From assembly GCA_964631135.1 (NCBI GenBank), contig CAZVVZ010000002.1, positions 3,333 through 35,332 of the forward strand: a stretch of 32,000 nucleotides of DNA. Reading direction: 5' to 3'. Positions within the stretch are counted from its first letter, which is position 1, and every line of letters begins with the position of its first letter. Position numbers and translations under genes: made by a program. This document shows, one piece after another, positions 2,559 through 25,316 of this stretch. The stretch is from an uncultured Eubacteriales bacterium (GTDB lineage Bacteria > Bacillota > Clostridia > TANB77 > RGIG9151). The notes under the pieces were generated by a model. That model did not search any database and was not told the origin of the DNA. It saw only the letters and a program-made list of their open reading frames with translations.

Positions 2559-4277
2559 CTAATTCTTATACCTCTTTATTTTATGTGTAGTTGTTTTAGA
2601 TAATTCCTGTTTTTGAATTTCAAACTTCTTAACATATTTATATGTTGGCATTTGCCTGTTAGCTTTTTTTACTTCTTGTGTAATAATTTTTTTAACTTCG
2701 TCATCGTCTATGTTGCTTTTATTAGTTACCGTACGAATAGCATCGTAATCCGGTACAATTATTGCACAAACCAGTGGTTCTACTTCGTCTTCTACCTCTT
2801 TACCAAACACCATACTCTCACGGATAAATTCGCTCTTATTTAAATACGCTTCCACTTCTTCAGGGAAAATATTTTTTCCGTTTTTAGTTACTATTACGTT
2901 CTTCTTTCTACCAGTTACATAGTAATAATCCTCTGAATCTTTATAGCCTAAATCTCCCGTATTTAGCCAACCATCTTCTGTAATAGTTGCATTTGTTGCT
3001 TCTTCGTTTTCAAAATAGCCATTCATTACAATTGGGCCTCTTATCCATATTTCTCCGGTCCCATCTTTATCTGCATTCTCTATCTTTGCTTCTAGCCCAG
3101 GTAAAGGCTTCCCTATAGAATTGTTTTTATATTCGTCCACATGGTTAACAAATGCAATAGGCGAAGCTTCAGTCAAACCATATCCTTGTATTACAAAAAA
3201 GCCTAAGTCTTGGAGTCCCTTTAGTATCTCAGGTTTGCTGGCAGCCCCACCGGAAATTGCAAGTCGCATTCTCCCCCCAAAATTATCTAATATGCTTCCA
3301 AACAATTTTTTCCTTAAGTCAACATTGATTTTACGAGCCAGTTTGCTTACCTTTAACCCGCCTTGTAAAATTGGCATCTTCCCTGTTTTTCCTGCAGTAT
3401 CTAAAATATTTTTATATATCTTTTCATAAATTAAAGGAACCGCAATCATAACAGTAGGTTTTACTTCCTGCATATTAGTTATAATATATCTTAGCCCTTC
3501 GCAAAAAGATATTCTTGCTCCACTATATAGCATTAGCAAGAAATTGACAGTACATTCATATGTATGATGAAGTGGCAAAATAGATAAAGTCACATCTTCC
3601 TCAGTAACATCAACTACTTGAGTAGTAGCGACAATATCCGCACAAATATTTTTCTGGGAAAGCAAAACTCCTTTAGCCAGTCCTGTCGTGCCTGATGTAA
3701 ATAAAAGTATAGTGGACTCATCAGGATTAACCTTAGCATTTATAAACTTTTTATCTCCTATTTTTAATAAATTATTTCCTCTTCTTAAAATTTTTGAAAA
3801 CGATAAGCATCCCTGCACATCATCTTTTAAATCCATATTTATAAAATATTTTATATCAGTAATTCCCTGAACTGACTCAACAACCTTGTCAGCTAATTTA
3901 TCAGAAAAAACTATAGCTTTAACCTTAGCACATTCCAATAAATACTTAAGCTCATTAGCAGGTAATTCCTTATCAAGCGGTACAATAGTTCCCGTTCCAC
4001 ACGTCGTAGCTAAATAGGTTAAGCACCACTCGTACCTATTTTCACCAATTACTGCAATTTTCTCATGCTTTAATCCCATATTTATAAATTCTGTTCCAAG
4101 TGCATCTATATCTCGTTTTAATTCTTTATATGTAATTCCCTCATATTCTTTCATAGGGTTTTTTATCCAAAAAGCATCTTTATTTCCATATATACTTACA
4201 CTTTGATTTATCAAGTCCTTAAAGTCAGAAATCTCTCTCTTCTCATAAATAGGCTGTGTCAAATTTATCCCTCCCAA
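2559..4277 (-). CDS. AMP-dependent synthetase / long-chain-fatty-acid--CoA ligase
   Basis: 572-aa ORF with the AMP-binding motif FTSGTTGLAKGV, plus GYGLTE and TGDLGY motifs. The track start is a TTG at 4277. GGGAGGG followed 6 nt later by a TTG at 4262 is a plausible alternative start. Confidence 0.85.
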   Translation of the reverse strand: MGGINLTQPIYEKREISDFKDLINQSVSIYGNKDAFWIKNPMKEYEGITYKELKRDIDALGTEFINMGLKHEKIAVIGENRYEWCLTYLATTCGTGTIVPLDKELPANELKYLLECAKVKAIVFSDKLADKVVESVQGITDIKYFINMDLKDDVQGCLSFSKILRRGNNLLKIGDKKFINAKVNPDESTILLFTSGTTGLAKGVLLSQKNICADIVATTQVVDVTEEDVTLSILPLHHTYECTVNFLLMLYSGARISFCEGLRYIITNMQEVKPTVMIAVPLIYEKIYKNILDTAGKTGKMPILQGGLKVSKLARKINVDLRKKLFGSILDNFGGRMRLAISGGAASKPEILKGLQDLGFFVIQGYGLTEASPIAFVNHVDEYKNNSIGKPLPGLEAKIENADKDGTGEIWIRGPIVMNGYFENEEATNATITEDGWLNTGDLGYKDSEDYYYVTGRKKNVIVTKNGKNIFPEEVEAYLNKSEFIRESMVFGKEVEDEVEPLVCAIIVPDYDAIRTVTNKSNIDDDEVKKIITQEVKKANRQMPTYKYVKKFEIQKQELSKTTTHKIKRYKN

Positions 4278-4359: not shown

Positions 4360-5256
4360 CTACATTGTTGCTCCCCTATCCACTACTTCTATTCCGTTTT
4401 TGCCTAATAGAATAATCTTTTCAAAAACGTCAAATTTAAGCAGTTCTCTCATCTTGTTACTTTTATATAAGTCCTCTACTTTATCTCCGTGAGCAGTAGC
4501 TAAAATTTTTACCCCGGAATTAAGTGCATATTCTATAGCCTCTGCATCATCATCTGTACCTATTTCGTCTGTTGCAATAAAATTAGGCTTCATAGAACGT
4601 ACCATCATCTTTATCCCGTCTGCCTTAACAACTCTGTCCATAATATCAGTCCTAAGTCCAACATCATTTTGAGGAATACCCAAAAAGCATCCTGCAACTT
4701 CCGACCTTTCATCTATTAAACTCACATTATATCCGCTATCGCTTATCTGTCTCACTAAATCTCTAAGTAATGTAGTTTTTCCAAGCCCCGGTGGTGAAAT
4801 TATCAATGTATTTACAAACTTTCCCTTTACTTTAATTTTTGTAATAATATTATCTGCAACACCCTTTATCTCTCTTGCGACTCTAAAATTTAATCCGGAA
4901 ATATCTTTTATAGAGTATATCTTTCCATCTTTATATAGTGGCTTACCGGATATTCCAACTCTGTGGCCTCCGCATATGGTAATAAATCCGTTTGAAATTT
5001 CTTCAGAAAAAGCATAAACGGAATTTTCACAAATGTTCTCAAAAATTCTTGCTATTTCTTCTTTCGTAACTATACATTTTTTACCATCTTTCTCAACAAC
5101 ATATTCTTTTTCCCTGCCTTCTAAAATAGCAGGTCTATTTACCCTAAGTCTTATTTCACAAATATCTTCTAATTCAATATTTTCATTTGAAAGTATACTA
5201 TTTCTAAGTTCCATAGGAAAATATTTTAATATTTCTTCTTTTATCCTATAAATCAT
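4360..5256 (-). CDS. SpoIIIAA-like / ycf45-like AAA ATPase, with no spoIIIAB-AH genes adjacent
   Basis: 298 aa. Walker A is ISPPGLGKTTLLRDLVRQIS and Walker B-like is FIATDEIGTDDDAEAI. Length and motif layout match stage III sporulation protein AA. Confidence 0.7.
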   Translation of the reverse strand: MIYRIKEEILKYFPMELRNSILSNENIELEDICEIRLRVNRPAILEGREKEYVVEKDGKKCIVTKEEIARIFENICENSVYAFSEEISNGFITICGGHRVGISGKPLYKDGKIYSIKDISGLNFRVAREIKGVADNIITKIKVKGKFVNTLIISPPGLGKTTLLRDLVRQISDSGYNVSLIDERSEVAGCFLGIPQNDVGLRTDIMDRVVKADGIKMMVRSMKPNFIATDEIGTDDDAEAIEYALNSGVKILATAHGDKVEDLYKSNKMRELLKFDVFEKIILLGKNGIEVVDRGATM

Positions 5257-5690: not shown

Positions 5691-5785
5691 GCTGCCGTTA
5701 CTAGTCAGAGTATATGTCGCTGGTCAGAGTGCATGAAATAAGATATATGTTTTATCGGAACTCAAGATTTGCGACGAAAGACTTT
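5691..5785 (+). repeat. intergenic palindromic-element family, copy A (half copy: left end plus arm X only)
   Basis: GCTGCCGTTACTAGTCAGAG-TATATGTCGCTGG-TCAGAGTGCATGAAATAAGATATAT, followed by arm X GTTTTATCGGAACTCAAGATTTGCGACGAAAGACTTT (5749..5785). The copy ends where the loop would start, 11 nt before the nrnA stop codon. Confidence 0.85.
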
Positions 5786-5796
5786 AAAAACTTAGT

Positions 5797-12401: not shown

Positions 12402-12429
12402 GTATTTTTTCAGAAAACTGCATTACAGG

Positions 12430-12598
12430 GTTACTGTTCAGACTACCTGCTGCTGGTCAGAGTACATGAAATAAGATATATGTTTTAAAAGGAACGAATA
12501 TTTGCCGAAAGACTTCCCGTATTTTTTTAAAGTCTTTCGTCGCAAATCCTGAGTTCCAATAAAACATATATCTTATTTCATGTACTCTGAACAGTAAC
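12430..12598 (-). mobile_element. intergenic palindromic-element family, copy B (full length, inverted relative to C and E), MITE-like
   Basis: The terminal inverted repeats are GTTACTGTTCAGAC (12430..12443) and CTCTGAACAGTAAC (12585..12598). TTACAGG abuts both ends (12423..12429 and 12599..12605). A perfect 31-bp outer stem pairs 12457..12487 with 12560..12590. Arm Y is at 12482..12515 and arm X, reverse-complemented, is at 12529..12565. Confidence 0.8.
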
Positions 12599-12647
12599 TT
12601 ACAGGTCCCCAGCCAACGGCAGCAACTCATCAAGTCACTGTTGAAAC

Positions 12648-13967
12648 TTACTCGCTTACTTCTACATCAATATATACTATATCCCCTGTATTAAACTTAA
12701 CCTTTATCGATGTATAGCCTGCATTTTTTCCTGTTATCTTTACTTTGCCATTACTTGTTAATGTTGTCTTATCTAACTTTATGTATGAATTATTATATGT
12801 AAGTGTTGCACTTGTCGCATCAAACTCGTCTAAATCAATATATACATATTCATACTCATCTTCCTCAATTTCTACTTCATCATAATTATCTCTGTAATCA
12901 TCATCGTCATCAATTTCTATATCTATATATACCGTATCTCCGGAATCATATTTAATCTTTACTGTTGTATCTCCTTCTTTTTTAGCAGTTATTGTTAAAT
13001 ACCCGTCACTTGTAAATTTAGTTTTAGATACTTTCACATAATTACTGTCATATGTAATTTTCGCTTCATCTGCATCATAATCGTCTAAATCAATATATAC
13101 TTTATGAGTATCCCCTACGTCCATGCTTACTTCTTCTTCATCATCGTCATCATCATCATCAATCTCTATATCTATATATACCGTATCTCCGGAATCATAT
13201 TTAATCTTTACTGTTGTATCTCCTTCTTTTTTAGCAGTTATTGTTAAATACCCGTCACTTGTAAATTTAGTTTTAGATACTTTCACATAATTACTGTCAT
13301 ATGTAATTTTCGCTTCATCTGCATCATAATCGTCTAAATCAATATATACTTTATATGTATCTCCGGTTTCCATGCTTACTTCATCTTCATACTCATCATC
13401 GTCTGTAACTTCTACATATAGTTTTTCAACATCACCCGTATTATATGTAATCTTTATCGTTGCCTCTCCTTCTTTTGAGCCTGTTATTTTTAAGTCACCC
13501 GATGAGGTAAATTTTGTTTTACTTACTTTCACATATGAATTTGAACCTGTAACTGTTGCACTTCTTGCACTATATCTTGCTAAGCTTACATAGTAAGTTT
13601 CACTTTCACCTTTTTCTAGTTCAATATCTTCTTCTCTTGTTTCTGTATAATAATTATTGCTACTACTGTTATAACTGCTGTTGTAATTATTATTATAATT
13701 ATTATAATTGTTAATATAAATTGCATTATTATTAAATGTAACTGTAGAACCCAAAGCTGTTCCAAGCTCGTTCAACGGCAAATATGTTCTCCCGTTATAA
13801 TTTAGTACCGGAGAAGTTGAAGCATAATAGCTTCCGTTTAAGTAAATAGGATAAGAACTAAAATACACATCTCCCGTAACCACTGAGGAAGCAATACTAA
13901 CTCCGCATGTTACTATAATTCCGGCTACTACTCCCATAAAAATACTTTTTAAATCAAATTTTTTCAT
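12648..13967 (-). CDS. membrane-anchored surface protein: copper-amine-oxidase-N-like stalk domain plus four Ig-like (Big_2-like) repeats joined by poly-acidic linkers
   Basis: 439 aa with an N-terminal TM helix (IFMGVVAGIIVTCGVSIASSVV). The segment YLNGSYYASTSPVLNYNGRTYLPLNELGTALGSTVTF resembles Cu_amine_oxidN1. There are four ~80-aa repeats of the form ...YVKVSKTKFTSDGYLTITAKKEGDTTVKIKY..GD..YIDIEI separated by D/E runs. An AAGGAGG RBS is present. Confidence 0.7.
   Translation of the reverse strand: MKKFDLKSIFMGVVAGIIVTCGVSIASSVVTGDVYFSSYPIYLNGSYYASTSPVLNYNGRTYLPLNELGTALGSTVTFNNNAIYINNYNNYNNNYNSSYNSSSNNYYTETREEDIELEKGESETYYVSLARYSARSATVTGSNSYVKVSKTKFTSSGDLKITGSKEGEATIKITYNTGDVEKLYVEVTDDDEYEDEVSMETGDTYKVYIDLDDYDADEAKITYDSNYVKVSKTKFTSDGYLTITAKKEGDTTVKIKYDSGDTVYIDIEIDDDDDDDEEEVSMDVGDTHKVYIDLDDYDADEAKITYDSNYVKVSKTKFTSDGYLTITAKKEGDTTVKIKYDSGDTVYIDIEIDDDDDYRDNYDEVEIEEDEYEYVYIDLDEFDATSATLTYNNSYIKLDKTTLTSNGKVKITGKNAGYTSIKVKFNTGDIVYIDVEVSE
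12917..13354. repeat. in-frame tandem duplication, period 249 bp (83 aa), inside the surface-protein gene
   Basis: By eye, 12917..13105 is identical base for base to 13166..13354 (189 bp). The flanks of each unit have diverged. Confidence 0.9.
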
Positions 13968-15067: not shown

Positions 15068-15202
15068 ATTCTCACCCTACTTATAAATACTATATTTTTA
15101 GTTTGTTCCCTTTTGAAATCATATTCTTATAATTTCTTTTTATGATATACTAACTTTGTGTATTATTTCATTTTGGCTTTTACAAATTTTCGTTGAAGCC
15201 CT

Positions 15203-15355
15203 GTTTGAGCAGAGCTTAGCGGTCAGACTACTGTAAAAAAATAATATATATGTTTTATCAGGACTTAGGATTTGCAACGAAAGACTTTGAAGAATACGAG
15301 AAGCCTTTCTGCAAATATTCATTCCTTTTAGAACATATATATTATTTTTTTACAG
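15203..15355 (+). repeat. intergenic palindromic-element family, copy C (full hairpin)
   Basis: A degenerate left end (GTTTGAGCAGAG-CTTAGCGG-TCAGAC) is followed by a perfect 24-bp outer stem pairing 15231..15254 with 15332..15355. Arm X is at 15252..15288 and arm Y, reverse-complemented, is at 15301..15334. The copy ends 22 nt after the upstream gene's stop codon. Confidence 0.85.
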
Positions 15356-15377: not shown

Positions 15378-16388
15378 TTAATCTTGTGTATCAACATCAA
15401 CATCAATGTCATCATCAGGTTCCGTATCATCATTTGGAGCTAATAAATCACTTTCAGCTATTTCCATTATATATTTTCCTCTTTCTTCGCTATAATTAAA
15501 TGAAATAAGTGATTTTTCCAAGGTCTCATCTAGCTGACGTAAATCTGTAGTATATAAAGGAGTGCAATCTTTTAACACTATCCTGTTTTTAACAAGAAGT
15601 TTAAATATCTCAACCAAGTGAGTATCATCTTCTCCAAGTAGCACCAACTGTGGCGGATTATCAAATCCGGAATCACGCATATTATAATACTCATAAAATT
15701 CAGCATATAGCTGCATTTTAGTAACAAACTTTTCTTCCCAACCAGGTTCACGTCTTACAGCCTCAAAAACAAAGTCAACTGTTTTTCCTTCTTTGTTTAA
15801 ACTAACTACCCCGCCGGAAACCTTAAACCTTATGTTCTGTCTTTTCGCCATAAGTACAGGATCAACAACATAATTTTTAAAATACTTAGCCTTCATCATA
15901 TAAGCGATTATAACCTGATTCCCTGCCAGCCTTTTCTTTATTAAATGCACCGGCTTTGTATTATTTGTAGGTACCCATTCTGTTCTTATTTCTCTTGAAT
16001 TTAATAAATATTTTCCTGATTTATCTAAGCAATAAATTCTATAAATTCCATTACCCTCGTCACTCTTAAAATAATATTTTGCAATAGCTCTTGCTTTTAT
16101 CAAATTTTCAAGCCTTGCATTAACTTTATTTTGGTCTTTTATCTCAATTCCCTTCATCTGAAGTAACTGATAAATTTGCCTTGACGTAATGAACTCAAAC
16201 TTACTAATAAGCTCTAGCATTTCAAAATGCAATTCATTAACATACCCCATATCTACCATAAAAACAGCCTGATTTACGTTAGAATACCCGGTCTTGCCAT
16301 CGTAAACTTTCTCTTCATTCGGACGCATCGCAAAAGGTGATTTCGTCGCTTTTACTTCTTTATCATTAATCATAATCATAACCTCCAT
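15378..16388 (-). CDS. hypothetical protein with an N-terminal winged-helix-like segment, resembling the replication-relaxation family (PF13814-like), and an acidic C-terminal tail
   Basis: 336-aa ORF. The GGAGG inside the first codons suggests that the true start is the ATG at 16373 (MINDKEV...). The segment LELISKFEFITSRQIYQLLQ...ARLENLIKARAIAKYYF...IYRIYCLDKSGKYLL follows the wHTH pattern I associate with Replic_Relax proteins. The C-terminus is NDDTEPDDDIDVDVDTQD. The family assignment is from memory and unverified. Confidence 0.45.
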   Translation of the reverse strand: MEVMIMINDKEVKATKSPFAMRPNEEKVYDGKTGYSNVNQAVFMVDMGYVNELHFEMLELISKFEFITSRQIYQLLQMKGIEIKDQNKVNARLENLIKARAIAKYYFKSDEGNGIYRIYCLDKSGKYLLNSREIRTEWVPTNNTKPVHLIKKRLAGNQVIIAYMMKAKYFKNYVVDPVLMAKRQNIRFKVSGGVVSLNKEGKTVDFVFEAVRREPGWEEKFVTKMQLYAEFYEYYNMRDSGFDNPPQLVLLGEDDTHLVEIFKLLVKNRIVLKDCTPLYTTDLRQLDETLEKSLISFNYSEERGKYIMEIAESDLLAPNDDTEPDDDIDVDVDTQD

Positions 16389-22459: not shown

Positions 22460-22540
22460 TATCAGACATAAATAAAATATATGTTTTATTTATGTCTGAG
22501 TAGCAGCCTAATCAGGCTCTTAAAAATAATATGTATGTTT
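22460..22540. repeat. intergenic palindromic-element family, copy D (minimal/degenerate: outer stem only, plus a second truncated stem fragment)
   Basis: TCAGACATAAATAAAA-TATATG-TTTTATTTATGTCTGA (22460..22497) is a 16-bp stem carrying the family's TCAGA and AATAAAATATATGTTTTA features, but both inner arms are missing. GTAGCAGCC follows, and then AAAATAATATGTATGTTTTA (22521..22540) runs into the upstream stop codon. Confidence 0.55.
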
Positions 22541-24105
22541 TAATATGTAATTGTAACAGTTCCGGTAGTCGCATTCCAAATAACACTTCCGCCCAAATTG
22601 TCCATTACAAATTTAATCGGAAGCATTGTTCTGCCATTTATTGATGTTGGTGCAACATCTAACCATTTTTGCTCTCCATTAACATATGCTAAAGCACTAT
22701 CTAAAGTTAAATAAATATTATTATTATCTAAAGTTATATTTACTCCCCTAGCTGCTTCATTCCAAATAACACTCCCGCCTAAAGACTCAATAACTGCTCT
22801 TATAGGTAACATTGTCCTATTGTTTAATATAACAGGAGCAGTAGCCCTATCTCCATCTATTGAAACTTTCTGGCCATTTACAAGCATATATGGGTTATTT
22901 ATTTCAAGAACTATATTAGTTTTACTATAAGTATTACCTGTTTCTACTAAAAAGCTGTAATCTTCATTTGAATAGTTTCTCGAACTAACCTTAAAATAAT
23001 ACTCACCCGTTGAAACTTCTTGAGTAGATCCACTTACAAAGTTTGTTAAAGTGCCGGAAGAAAATGTTTCACTTTTTAGTTGCTTCAATGTTCCATTTTC
23101 ATTTTTATAAGTAACAACCGTGTACTTTGCTCCCTCAGGCACGTTCATTTTTATAGTAAACTTATTGCTGTTCCAAATATCAGTTCTGTAATAATCCACA
23201 TCACTACTTGAATTCAAATTGCCAATATATTCAATATTTGTTGTAATTTCATTTGCATTTCTAGGCTCGTCATTATACTCTTTCTCATAGTATCCGTATG
23301 TGTTCCCCAAAAACTTCACGCAAAACGTATAATCCTCATTAGAAAATTTACTTCCGTTTCTGCTTATCTTAAAATAATAATTTCCTTCCGGTATTCTCAT
23401 TCTCCCTGAAGTTGCAAAATAAGTATCTGAATTTTGGTTAAGCTTAGCTTCATATTTTGTACTCTTTAAAGATTTCAGCGAACCATTATTCTCAGAATAT
23501 GTTTCAATATTATAAACAGCCTCATTATCAAACTCCAACGTAGTATAAAGCTCACCGTTAGAAGGAATTTCAACCATATAATAGTCAACATCGCTGGTAG
23601 ACTCCAAATTGCCAATTATATTTCTGTTATAATCGATAAGCATAGCTGTTTTTGCATCATTATTCGGCTCTTTTTCATATCGATCACCGGATTCTTCATC
23701 ATATATAACTTCTAGTTCGTATTCCTCATCACAAAAAGAGCTATAACCATCACAAGTAACCTGAATCTGATAATTTCCCTTAGCAATTCTAATCTTATTT
23801 CCGGTCTGCTCGTATCTTCCGGTAGACGTATTAACACTGGACTTAAATGTTGTGGTCTGAAGTGTCTTTTCTGTCTTTGTATTTACCAATTTTACGTTAT
23901 ATGAACCTTCCACATCAAATTCAAACTTTATTTGTAAGCTTCCCGGATCTGAAAGTGAAAAATTAAAATAATCCACTTCACCCTTTTCAGATATTTCATC
24001 TTCAATTAGTTTATTAACCTTAATTGTTTTACTCGTACCTTCTTTCGCTAAAGATACAGAAAATAGTAAACAAAACGTAAAAAAAGCAATTAAAATTTTC
24101 TTCAT
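22540..24105 (-). CDS. secreted protein: three pre-peptidase-C-terminal (PPC)-like domains plus two C-terminal copper-amine-oxidase-N-like repeats
   Basis: I take the ATG at 24105 as the start (MKKILIAFFTFCLLFSVSLA signal peptide, GAGGGAGAG RBS). The track's start at 24141 would overlap the predicted -10. There are three repeats containing E.EPN(D/N)....A and DVDYY motifs. The C-terminus contains NNRTMLPIRAVIESLGGSVIWN and INGRTMLPIKFVMDNLGGSVIWN. Confidence 0.75.
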   Translation of the reverse strand: MKKILIAFFTFCLLFSVSLAKEGTSKTIKVNKLIEDEISEKGEVDYFNFSLSDPGSLQIKFEFDVEGSYNVKLVNTKTEKTLQTTTFKSSVNTSTGRYEQTGNKIRIAKGNYQIQVTCDGYSSFCDEEYELEVIYDEESGDRYEKEPNNDAKTAMLIDYNRNIIGNLESTSDVDYYMVEIPSNGELYTTLEFDNEAVYNIETYSENNGSLKSLKSTKYEAKLNQNSDTYFATSGRMRIPEGNYYFKISRNGSKFSNEDYTFCVKFLGNTYGYYEKEYNDEPRNANEITTNIEYIGNLNSSSDVDYYRTDIWNSNKFTIKMNVPEGAKYTVVTYKNENGTLKQLKSETFSSGTLTNFVSGSTQEVSTGEYYFKVSSRNYSNEDYSFLVETGNTYSKTNIVLEINNPYMLVNGQKVSIDGDRATAPVILNNRTMLPIRAVIESLGGSVIWNEAARGVNITLDNNNIYLTLDSALAYVNGEQKWLDVAPTSINGRTMLPIKFVMDNLGGSVIWNATTGTVTITY

Positions 24106-24193: not shown

Positions 24194-24358
24194 CACCTGC
24201 CAGCCAAAGTACTAGTATATGAAAATAATATATATGTTTTATCGGGACTCAGGATTTGCGACGAAAAACTTTAAAAAATGTGGGAAGTCTTTCGGCAAAT
24301 ATTCGTTCCTTTTAAAACATATATATTATTTTCATATACTAGTGCTCTGACTAATAAC
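24194..24358 (+). repeat. intergenic palindromic-element family, copy E (full hairpin)
   Basis: A perfect 31-bp outer stem pairs 24211..24241 with 24313..24343. Arm X is at 24236..24272 and arm Y, reverse-complemented, is at 24285..24318. The right terminal module is CTCTGACTAATAAC (ending at 24358) and the left flank is CACCTGCCAGCCAA. The copy ends 12 nt after the deoD stop codon. Confidence 0.85.
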
Positions 24359-24370
24359 ATTTCAGGAATT

Positions 24371-25078
24371 TTATATTTTCAATGTAGTTTCTAAAGCTAA
24401 AACAATCATGTCATTTAATGCTTTTTGTCTTTCCTCGGCACTAAGTTGCTCGCTATACAAAAATGAATCTGTTACACTAAGTAAGCAAGCTGCCTGCTTA
24501 TTTAGCACACGTGCATTATGAAATAGTGCAAAGGACTCCATTTCAACAGCTAAACATCCATATTCATCTCTTAATTTCCTAAAATCAGAAACATCAGAAT
24601 AAAATACTTCTGTATTATGAACTGTTCCTACAACCAGCTTTATATCTTTTTCGTTTGCGGTTTCTATTATTTTTTCATTTAATTCCATAGAAGCAGGTAT
24701 AAACTTATCATTATTCCCATTCTGAAGTTTTGCAAAAGCACCTTCGCTAAAAGATTTGTCAACCAGAATTACGTCTAGAAGTTTTAGCCCTTCCGCATAA
24801 GCACCGCAACTTCCGATTCTTATAATCTTATCTACGTCATAAAATTTATATAGCTCGTAAGAATATATGCCTATACTTCCATTTCCCATGCCATGTGCCA
24901 TTACTGTAATTCTCTTTCCTTTATAATTTCCGGTGTATGCATACATACCGCGAACCGAGTTGACAAGTTTTACGTCCTCCAAAAAGTTTTCTGCTATATA
25001 TTTAGCTCTAAGAGGGTCCCCAGGCATTAGGACAATATTTGCAATATCTTCTTTTTTTGCTTCGTTATGAGGTGTCAT
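24371..25078 (-). CDS. deoD: purine nucleoside phosphorylase, DeoD type
   Basis: I take the ATG at 25078 as the start (MTPHNEAKKEDIANIVLMPGDPLRAKYIAE...) with an AAAGGA RBS. GMGNGSIGIYSYEL, RIGSCG and VEMES motifs are present. The track's 20-codon N-terminal extension is not typical of DeoD. Confidence 0.9.
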   Translation of the reverse strand: MTPHNEAKKEDIANIVLMPGDPLRAKYIAENFLEDVKLVNSVRGMYAYTGNYKGKRITVMAHGMGNGSIGIYSYELYKFYDVDKIIRIGSCGAYAEGLKLLDVILVDKSFSEGAFAKLQNGNNDKFIPASMELNEKIIETANEKDIKLVVGTVHNTEVFYSDVSDFRKLRDEYGCLAVEMESFALFHNARVLNKQAACLLSVTDSFLYSEQLSAEERQKALNDMIVLALETTLKI

Positions 25079-25227
25079 AAATATCAATCCTTTCTTTTTT
25101 ATTTTCATATAATGTAAATTTTTTCTACAATAAATCAAAAATTATATCGTAATTTTCTGCTTTATTCTTTAATAGCATTAGTGTAGTTGAAATTATTTGT
25201 GCACATTAGAAAGTTATTTTCTGTCAC

Positions 25228-25301
25228 TATTTATAATAAAAATAATATATGCTTTATCAAAACTCAGGATTTGCGGTGAAAGACTTTAATTATTTTCATG
25301 T
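25228..25301 (+). repeat. intergenic palindromic-element family, copy F (internally deleted: arm X joined directly to the right outer-stem remnant)
   Basis: AAAAATAATATAT is followed by arm X GCTTTATCAAAACTCAGGATTTGCGGTGAAAGACTTT (25242..25278), and then directly by AATTATTTTCATGTAGTAGTGCC. That last stretch resembles the right end of copy E (ATTATTTTCATATACTAGTGC). Confidence 0.7.
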
Positions 25302-25316
25302 AGTAGTGCCTAAATG

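Follow-up and report, generated by a model that had tools for sequence, protein, structure and literature searches.

A palindromic intergenic repeat family with self-identical arms and a conserved asymmetric centre in a Clostridia lineage

The hairpin at positions 24202..24358 of the window, the 32-kb stretch of DNA analysed here, belongs to a palindromic intergenic repeat family that is previously undescribed and adds to a Clostridia lineage known from metagenomes only. On balance, we regard this hairpin (copy E) as a member of a MITE- or REPIN-like family in which the arms are homogenised by copying at the DNA level and the centre is constrained, a reading that is probable rather than secure. 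The copies lie between genes in both orientations, and their presence varies between close relatives. From this distribution, the family appears to be mobile in the lineage now, or to have been so recently. Within a copy the two arms change in concert, and between copies the asymmetric centre is conserved.

Architecture and distribution of the repeat

The window contains three full copies (B, C, and E) and three truncated copies (A, D, and F), all intergenic and in both orientations. The census of the original prediction was incomplete, as it lacked the three truncated copies.

Copy E scores 149.6 bits with the covariance model. Its 31-nt left outer arm (24211..24241) is the perfect complement of its 31-nt right outer arm (24313..24343). 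Further out, the arms are decayed (24202–24210 with 24344–24352) and can pair solely by G-U on the minus strand, and the right terminus reads ...GTCAGAGC...AATAAC. The asymmetric centre (24242..24312, plus strand) is sequentially composed of a 5′ internal loop (24242–24253), the hexamer ATTTGC (24254–24259), a GA bulge (24260–24261), CGAAAAACTT (24262–24271), a terminal loop (24272–24284), AAGTCTTTCG (24285–24294), the hexamer GCAAAT (24295–24300), and a 3′ internal loop (24301–24312).

Copy B occupies 12430..12598, and its centre is reversed relative to those of C and E. Its 31-bp inner arms (12457–12487 with 12560–12590) are perfect and are surrounded by an outer palindrome in which GTTACTGTTCAGA (12430–12442) pairs with TCTGAACAGTAAC (12586–12598). 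The left arm carries a 19-nt (14 + 5) insertion at 12443–12461. Copy C (15231..15355) is built around a centre at 15258–15328. Its arms are perfect over 24 bp (15231–15254 with 15332–15355) and reach 27 bp with one mismatch (15231–15257 with 15329–15355). The outer stems of B, C, and E are thus perfect yet unlike one another, exactly as the original prediction had described, and none of them could be extended by exact matching in either direction. The stems had been placed correctly, but the elements are larger than had been proposed, with B covering 12430–12598 and E at least 24202–24358.

Full elements of the family are 125–250 bp long and have arms of 24–88 nt. The centre, ~70–80 nt long, contains a 6-bp stem (ATTTGC/GCAAAT), a 2-nt bulge (GA; AA in C), a 10-bp stem (CGAAAGACTT/AAGTCTTTCG), and a variable terminal loop of 13–19 nt; its internal loop places ACTCAGG opposite ATATTCG. 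Its two halves, X and Y, pair only with each other, and neither folds alone. The mismatch geometry between them recurs in B, C, and E, as had been predicted, and also in three copies in a related genome. The terminus of the arms, GTTACTNNTCAGAS, is conserved across genomes. Core motifs occur 4–5 times in the window versus 0.00–0.04 expected from window shuffles, and predicted folding energies lie at z-scores near −12 for both strands, which excludes a chance origin. The Y side is the most conserved stretch of the family. Within it lies a nearly palindromic octamer, GAATATTC, which the window copies carry as AAATATTC (24295–24304 and equivalents, and L041 at ~4977–4986); it could be a dimeric protein-binding site.

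The window lies on a 35,333-bp contig that carries core chromosomal genes, all on the minus strand, including murA, ftsQ, ftsA, ftsZ, a PNP-family gene, rsmB, a sigma factor gene, rimP, nusA, infB, rbfA, nrnA, rpmF, and spoIIIAA. The G+C content is ~33%, the GC skew is strongly negative, and no transposase is encoded on the contig of the window. Copy E directly follows the PNP-family gene, whose stop codon is at 24371, and precedes the promoter of the next gene (TTGCAA-17-TACAAT, 24168–24140). Copy B lies directly after the stop codon of the open reading frame (ORF) 12648–13967, and copy C after ORF 15378–16388. ORF 12648–13967 contains four tandem copies of a 249-nt unit (12643–13641, 60–95% identity). 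It encodes a repeat-containing protein, probably at the cell surface, with a weak match to a copper-amine-oxidase N-terminal domain.

The truncated copies retain different portions of the element. Copy A (5697..5790, plus strand) is a half element that comprises the outer flank, the left arm, the X half, and the start of the loop, with the right half missing. Copy F (25226..25305, plus strand) is an internal-deletion derivative, in which the left arm and X half are fused to the distal right arm; it lies directly downstream of the canonical ftsZ terminator (25359–25327, minus strand). Copy D (22462..22542) consists of remnants without a centre, a 19-bp palindrome of arm sequence (22462–22499) and a second arm fragment (22522–22542). 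In A, D, F, and a hairpin at 3009–3069 of the related contig L026, the left-arm/X side is kept and the Y side and proximal right arm are lost (4/4). This shared pattern hints at a directional deletion or formation process, in a set of four that is too few for statistics.

Contigs of relatives were retrieved via the conserved neighbouring proteins. FtsZ of the window is ~71% identical to that of the nearest named relatives (Pseudobacteroides and C. thermosuccinogenes) and up to 93% identical to that of metagenomic relatives, which places the organism among uncultured, Acetivibrionales-like Clostridia. One of the latter, the JGI contig L026 (FtsZ 93% identical), contains three more copies in 21 kb, with the same centre as in the window and arms of 62, 68–70, and 78–88 nt that are 98–100% self-complementary. 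The evidence for the family therefore comprises six independent full copies from two genomes. The retrieved contigs of the other relatives contain no family copy, except for a shortened variant in a third organism (L041 4918–5020; FtsZ 92% identical). The variant has 17-bp arms, scores 28 bits with the covariance model, and retains the AATATTCG-CCCTTTTAA motif without the inner X/Y stem.

Core patterns searched against reference-genome, metagenome, and viral contig collections gave only chance matches, in unrelated phyla or in coding sequence; the search pattern recovered the known local sequence as a control. BLAST against plasmids and phages found nothing. Rfam gave no match at the gathering score; relaxing the E-value brought up only plant miRNA models of the generic long-hairpin kind.

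The repeat also leaves its mark on assemblies. Two independent short-read assemblies of the same strain (L056 and L058) start or break inside B, at 12480–12560, which indicates that assemblies are fragmented by the repeat and that metagenomic contigs probably under-represent it. The L041 and L043 contigs end at GTTACTAGTCAGAC, the outer-arm terminus of A, B, and E. An assembly artefact is ruled out, as the same elements are found in independent NCBI, ENA, and Logan assemblies.

Concerted change in the arms

The covariation alignment comprised the six independent copies and three strain variants, and was compared with 500 shuffles and with slid controls. Both sides have changed in 22 of the 34 outer pairs, and one side only in a single pair; two-sided change affects 2 of the 17 inner pairs. 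None of the 500 shuffles reached the observed covariation, and the slid controls were only ~43–56% paired. The covariation anticipated by the original prediction is thus significant.

Within a copy, the arms are 98–100% Watson-Crick paired over 62–88 nt. Between copies, the distal 15–16 aligned columns of each arm are ~32% identical, which is the background for AT-rich DNA, and beyond ~20–35 nt from the centre the arms are unrelated. Perfect arms that differ between copies could not result if terminal inverted repeats decayed independently, and such decay is excluded, as had been argued at the outset. The predicted conservation of the asymmetric centre also holds. The X and Y halves are 83–94% identical between the two genomes, in contrast to ~32% for the distal arms and 41% for the terminal loop, whose identity spans 41–68%.

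The form of the changes is informative. Copies differ by whole blocks of 30–50 nt and by mirrored indels, including those between B and E, and wobble intermediates are almost absent. The covariation is strand-symmetric and block-like. Stepwise compensatory substitution under selection on RNA cannot give block changes and mirrored indels, whereas templated copying does.

Copies A and B bear on the orientation of the centre. Both apparently share an asymmetric left flank, composed of GTTACTNNTCAGAS, 13–14 nt ending in GCTGG, and then TCAGAGTRCATGAAATAAGATATATGTTTTA. Beside this flank lies the X half in A and the Y half in B, which implies that the centre was inverted between the arms in one lineage.

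Orthologous sites reveal presence and absence of copies. The A site is empty in L070, where 14 nt separate the nrnA stop codon from the rpmF promoter, versus 126 nt in the window. In L071 no copy occupies the D site, and the gap there measures 15 nt versus 126 nt. Both empty sites concern truncated copies.

The B site of L069 and L070 (NusA 95% identical) is occupied by another hairpin, with near-perfect arms of 67–70 bp and a different, 57-nt centre (L069 9215–9411, equivalent to L070 2079–2275). The outer palindrome around B in the window has a homologue in the outer arm of the L069 hairpin, GTTACTGTT[GTAACAAG]TCAGAC. The two differ by an 8-nt indel that is mirrored on both arms. Pieces of this second centre recur at L069 5153–5171 and at 15187–15213 of the window, immediately left of C, so these intergenic regions are mosaics of related palindromic modules. 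This suggests a wider superfamily of such mosaic modules. Homology between the second centre and that of B, C, and E was considered and rejected, as the likeness is patchy (ATTTNCGACGA) and is missed by both nhmmer and the covariance model.

Strain differences fall mostly in the terminal loop. Two close strains carry changes in one arm only. In L060, a 1-nt indel of A in one arm of C is unmirrored. In L057, three substitutions in the left arm of B are unmirrored and render its outer part identical to copy A, which indicates exchange between copies. Such one-sided changes in close strains imply that homogenisation is not fast but episodic. Copy B is also polymorphic in the 12461/12590 region (CTGACCAG versus CTGAACAG; L054, L056, L057, and L059), with a perfect stem of 31 or 37 bp. 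Either the mismatch is new or the stem was recently corrected.

Origin of the self-identical arms

DNA-level copying between arms would account for these features as follows. One arm would be repeatedly re-copied from its partner, so that the arms of a copy stay identical. The likely routes are template switching during replication in the hairpin, or recombination or gene conversion between the inverted arms. Template switching is known to perfect imperfect inverted repeats in bacteria and has been argued to conserve perfect ones over evolution (PMC5941160, PMC7202029). Either route produces mirrored substitutions and indels without selection on structure. In an exchange between arms, the crossover outcome would flip the centre and the non-crossover outcome would be gene conversion. 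The original prediction had set against itself homogenisation of the arms by gene conversion with no conserved bulge geometry. The first half of this agrees with the conversion-like behaviour seen here; the second does not, as the geometry of the bulge is conserved.

If the switch back to the original template came late, the palindrome would grow outward, and growth would presumably halt at sequence under selection, such as stop codons or the end of a tRNA. The positions at which arms end match this expectation. In L026, copy 2 starts on the final base of tRNA-Lys, with a T-run after its end. Copy 3 spans the stop codons of both convergent genes, which both end in AAATAGCTAA, and copy 1 extends 20 nt into the 3′ end of feoB. 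Some copies may in addition sit within older palindromes.

The centre is not symmetrised and diverges slowly, which argues for purifying selection on it. It would then be a recognition module, read either by the machinery that spreads the repeat or by a host protein.

The original prediction had instead taken the mirrored changes as a sign of selection on a folded RNA. The corresponding alternative is that the repeat is a cis-acting structured RNA (a 3′-end hairpin, an mRNA stabiliser, or an RNase III site), with pairing under selection and the bulge and loop as recognition features. Copies E, B, and C do follow the stop codons of three genes without another recognisable terminator, and L026 copy 2 follows a tRNA and has a T-run after it. 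In 5/5 one-directional contexts, G-U pairs give the mRNA-sense strand a slightly better fold, and plus-strand A-C mismatches in E and C correspond to G-U in the mRNA. This bias cannot serve as proof of an RNA role, as C-to-T mutation bias on the non-transcribed strand confounds it, and in the long L026 arms the mismatches fall on both strands. Of the copies in one-directional contexts, 6/7 face the same way relative to transcription, but this orientation bias is not significant (p ~0.13) and B has the opposite orientation.

The stems themselves are not what selection on RNA maintains, being 62–88 bp long, 98–100% Watson-Crick, and almost free of wobble pairs. Multi-nucleotide mirrored indels and unrelated arm blocks of 30–50 nt cannot come from stepwise compensation. 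Furthermore, truncated copies are retained, the hairpins of the window copies lack a following U-tract, and Rfam offers only generic long-hairpin miRNA models. The occurrence of copies in both orientations and the flipped centre of A versus B also weigh against selection on a folded RNA. We therefore find no support for the inference of RNA selection from the mirrored changes, and consider a cis-acting RNA unlikely as the main explanation.

A putative RNA role as a 3′-end hairpin is nevertheless possible beside DNA-level copying. Given the position of copies immediately downstream of stop codons, very long hairpins must be present in the transcripts. A probable secondary effect is that they would serve as 3′-end barriers or as substrates for RNase III.

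A second alternative places selection on the element as a mobile unit, as proposed for REPINs and for elements of the IS200/IS605 type. Here a transposase would recognise the hairpin of a repeat mobilised as single-stranded DNA, so that only copies with fully paired arms and the right bulges multiply, and the perfection of the arms would record which copies reproduce rather than copying between arms. HUH (Y1) transposases read imperfect palindromes, which the hairpin with its conserved extrahelical bulge and internal loop resembles, and a CGTC tetranucleotide on the complementary strand spans the bulge. The two orientations, the presence/absence polymorphism, and the conservation of the arm terminus GTTACTNNTCAGAS across genomes fit such a unit, and compensatory changes are common in REPINs (PMC3116915). 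However, no RAYT or IS200-like gene occurs in any retrieved contig, and X and Y are not individually palindromic and hence are not REP units. Arms that enter neighbouring genes and differ wholly between copies are hard to fit to a fixed mobile unit, and the inverted centre of A versus B requires DNA recombination in any case. We judge it improbable that element-level selection alone explains the arms.

In a third alternative, the element inserts at the exact loop of a pre-existing palindrome, for instance an intrinsic terminator, and the arms combine an old host hairpin with the inverted repeats of the element itself, ~35–45 nt long. The distal arms of L026 copy 2 (AAAAAGAGGCTGTAAAAG...CTTTTACAGCCTCTT, then a T-run) are terminator-like and closely match the hairpin at L026 3009–3069. 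L026 copy 1 has a GC-rich terminator-like layer (GAGAAGGGCTTTG/CAAAGCCCTTCTC), and B lies inside an outer palindrome that is common to the orthologous L069 hairpin. REP dimers within long palindromes are also known (PMC3733652). Mirror copying is still required, as both arms of L026 copy 2 contain GTATAAGCCTC, which forms the single-copy loop in the 3009–3069 hairpin. In addition, the outer layers, which would be older, match as perfectly as the inner ones, and perfect host palindromes of 50–78 bp are absent elsewhere in ~160 kb of related contigs. Insertion into a ready-made palindrome is accordingly quite unlikely to be the source of the arms.

The hairpin at L026 3009–3069 has a 26-bp stem; AAAAAGAGGCAGTAAAAAAGTATAAGCCTC, which makes up its 5′ stem and loop, agrees with the distal left arm of copy 2. 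This hairpin has either arisen from an element of the family by deletion or is a terminator of the type targeted by insertion. The recurrence of this distal arm implies that some arm sequence regarded as copy-specific may belong to a repeat subfamily rather than being copied local flank.

A fourth reading, for which we see little probability, treats the asymmetric centre as a module that nucleates palindromes, in which fold-back or template switching rewrites one flank as an inverted copy of the other. If this were true, a perfect palindrome would grow to the ends of tRNAs and to last codons, and convergent genes would come to share a 3′ end. Repeat spread would then be coupled to local genome remodelling by inverted duplication of the target flank, which is undescribed for bacterial mobile elements.

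Several other candidates were rejected. An intrinsic terminator does not fit, as the terminator scan calls none at E, B, or C, the interior is 71–72 nt, and no T-run follows the stem. Nor is the centre an invertible DNA switch: strain variants of a locus share one orientation, no recombinase gene lies nearby, and the inversion is seen only between the paralogous copies A and B. A small ORF is suggested in the mRNA sense by an SD-like AAAGGAG followed by TTG, but its frame and stop vary between copies with loop length. A Spo0A-box-like TGCCGAA is present in B and E and absent from C and the L026 copies. The centre has no conserved −35/−10 pair, and the downstream promoters lie outside the elements.

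These results underscore that highly significant covariation in a hairpin can mislead, as the form of the changes here points to DNA copying rather than to an RNA fold. Screens for non-coding RNA need to separate arm-to-arm DNA copying from selection on an RNA fold. If the favoured explanation, copying between arms at the DNA level, is true, the family provides a natural system for the concerted evolution of long inverted repeats, with a built-in control in the asymmetric centre that resists homogenisation. It could also reveal how the 3′ ends of genes are reshaped.

Comparison with known palindromic repeats

Integron attC sites are recognised as folded single-stranded DNA, and their extrahelical bases and unpaired centre outweigh the sequence of the stem. 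The present repeat is similarly an imperfect palindrome with conserved extrahelical bases and an unpaired central region. However, attC sites occur in one-orientation cassette arrays beside an integrase and have conserved R/L boxes at their outer ends. No integrase is found near the family copies, whose neighbours are housekeeping genes (ftsZ, nusA-infB, and rsmB).

The Correia elements of Neisseria and the ERIC/IRU and YPAL elements of enterobacteria are non-coding repeats of ~100–170 bp with terminal inverted repeats. They lie in transcribed intergenic regions near gene ends in either orientation, and their hairpin transcripts can be cut by RNase III or can alter mRNA stability. Those elements have constant arms and defined target duplications, whereas the arms described here are copy-specific beyond ~20–40 nt and yet self-identical. 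No transposase gene or parent insertion sequence was seen in any retrieved contig, and no clean target-site duplication or excision product is found. The single candidate is the direct repeat TTACAGG that brackets B (12423–12429 and 12599–12605), a doubtful 7 bp, and the three L026 copies have no target-site duplication. TTTCAGG follows the right end of E (24360–24366), and the heptamer at B may thus be part of the repeat rather than a target duplication.

MITE-like palindromic repeats have been reviewed (PMC3184786). The present elements are short (<300 bp) and non-coding, have terminal inverted repeats, and are multi-copy, with six copies or remnants in 32 kb of the window and three in 21 kb of L026, and with presence that varies between relatives.

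Quasipalindrome correction by template switching likewise leaves perfect arms with mirrored substitutions and indels (PMC5941160, PMC7202029). It is a process, studied mainly for short arms of a few to tens of nucleotides, and it leaves the asymmetric centre unexplained.

REPINs and REP dimers share many features with the family. Both are short, non-coding, multi-copy, and intergenic, form long hairpins in both orientations, and leave singlet or half remnants; their presence varies between close relatives. Compensatory changes have been described in the hairpins of mobile REPINs (PMC3116915), and REP dimers can be embedded in longer palindromes (PMC3733652), as some copies are here. The retrieved contigs contain neither a GTAG-tagged REP nor a RAYT gene, and CGTC spans the bulge but is not beside a REP-type stem. 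The X and Y halves are not REP stem-loops, and the arms are AT-rich and much longer than in REPINs, reaching 88 nt. The two families also differ in what is conserved: in REPINs the outer REP stem-loops are constant and the spacer varies, whereas here the inner asymmetric centre is conserved and the outer arms vary.
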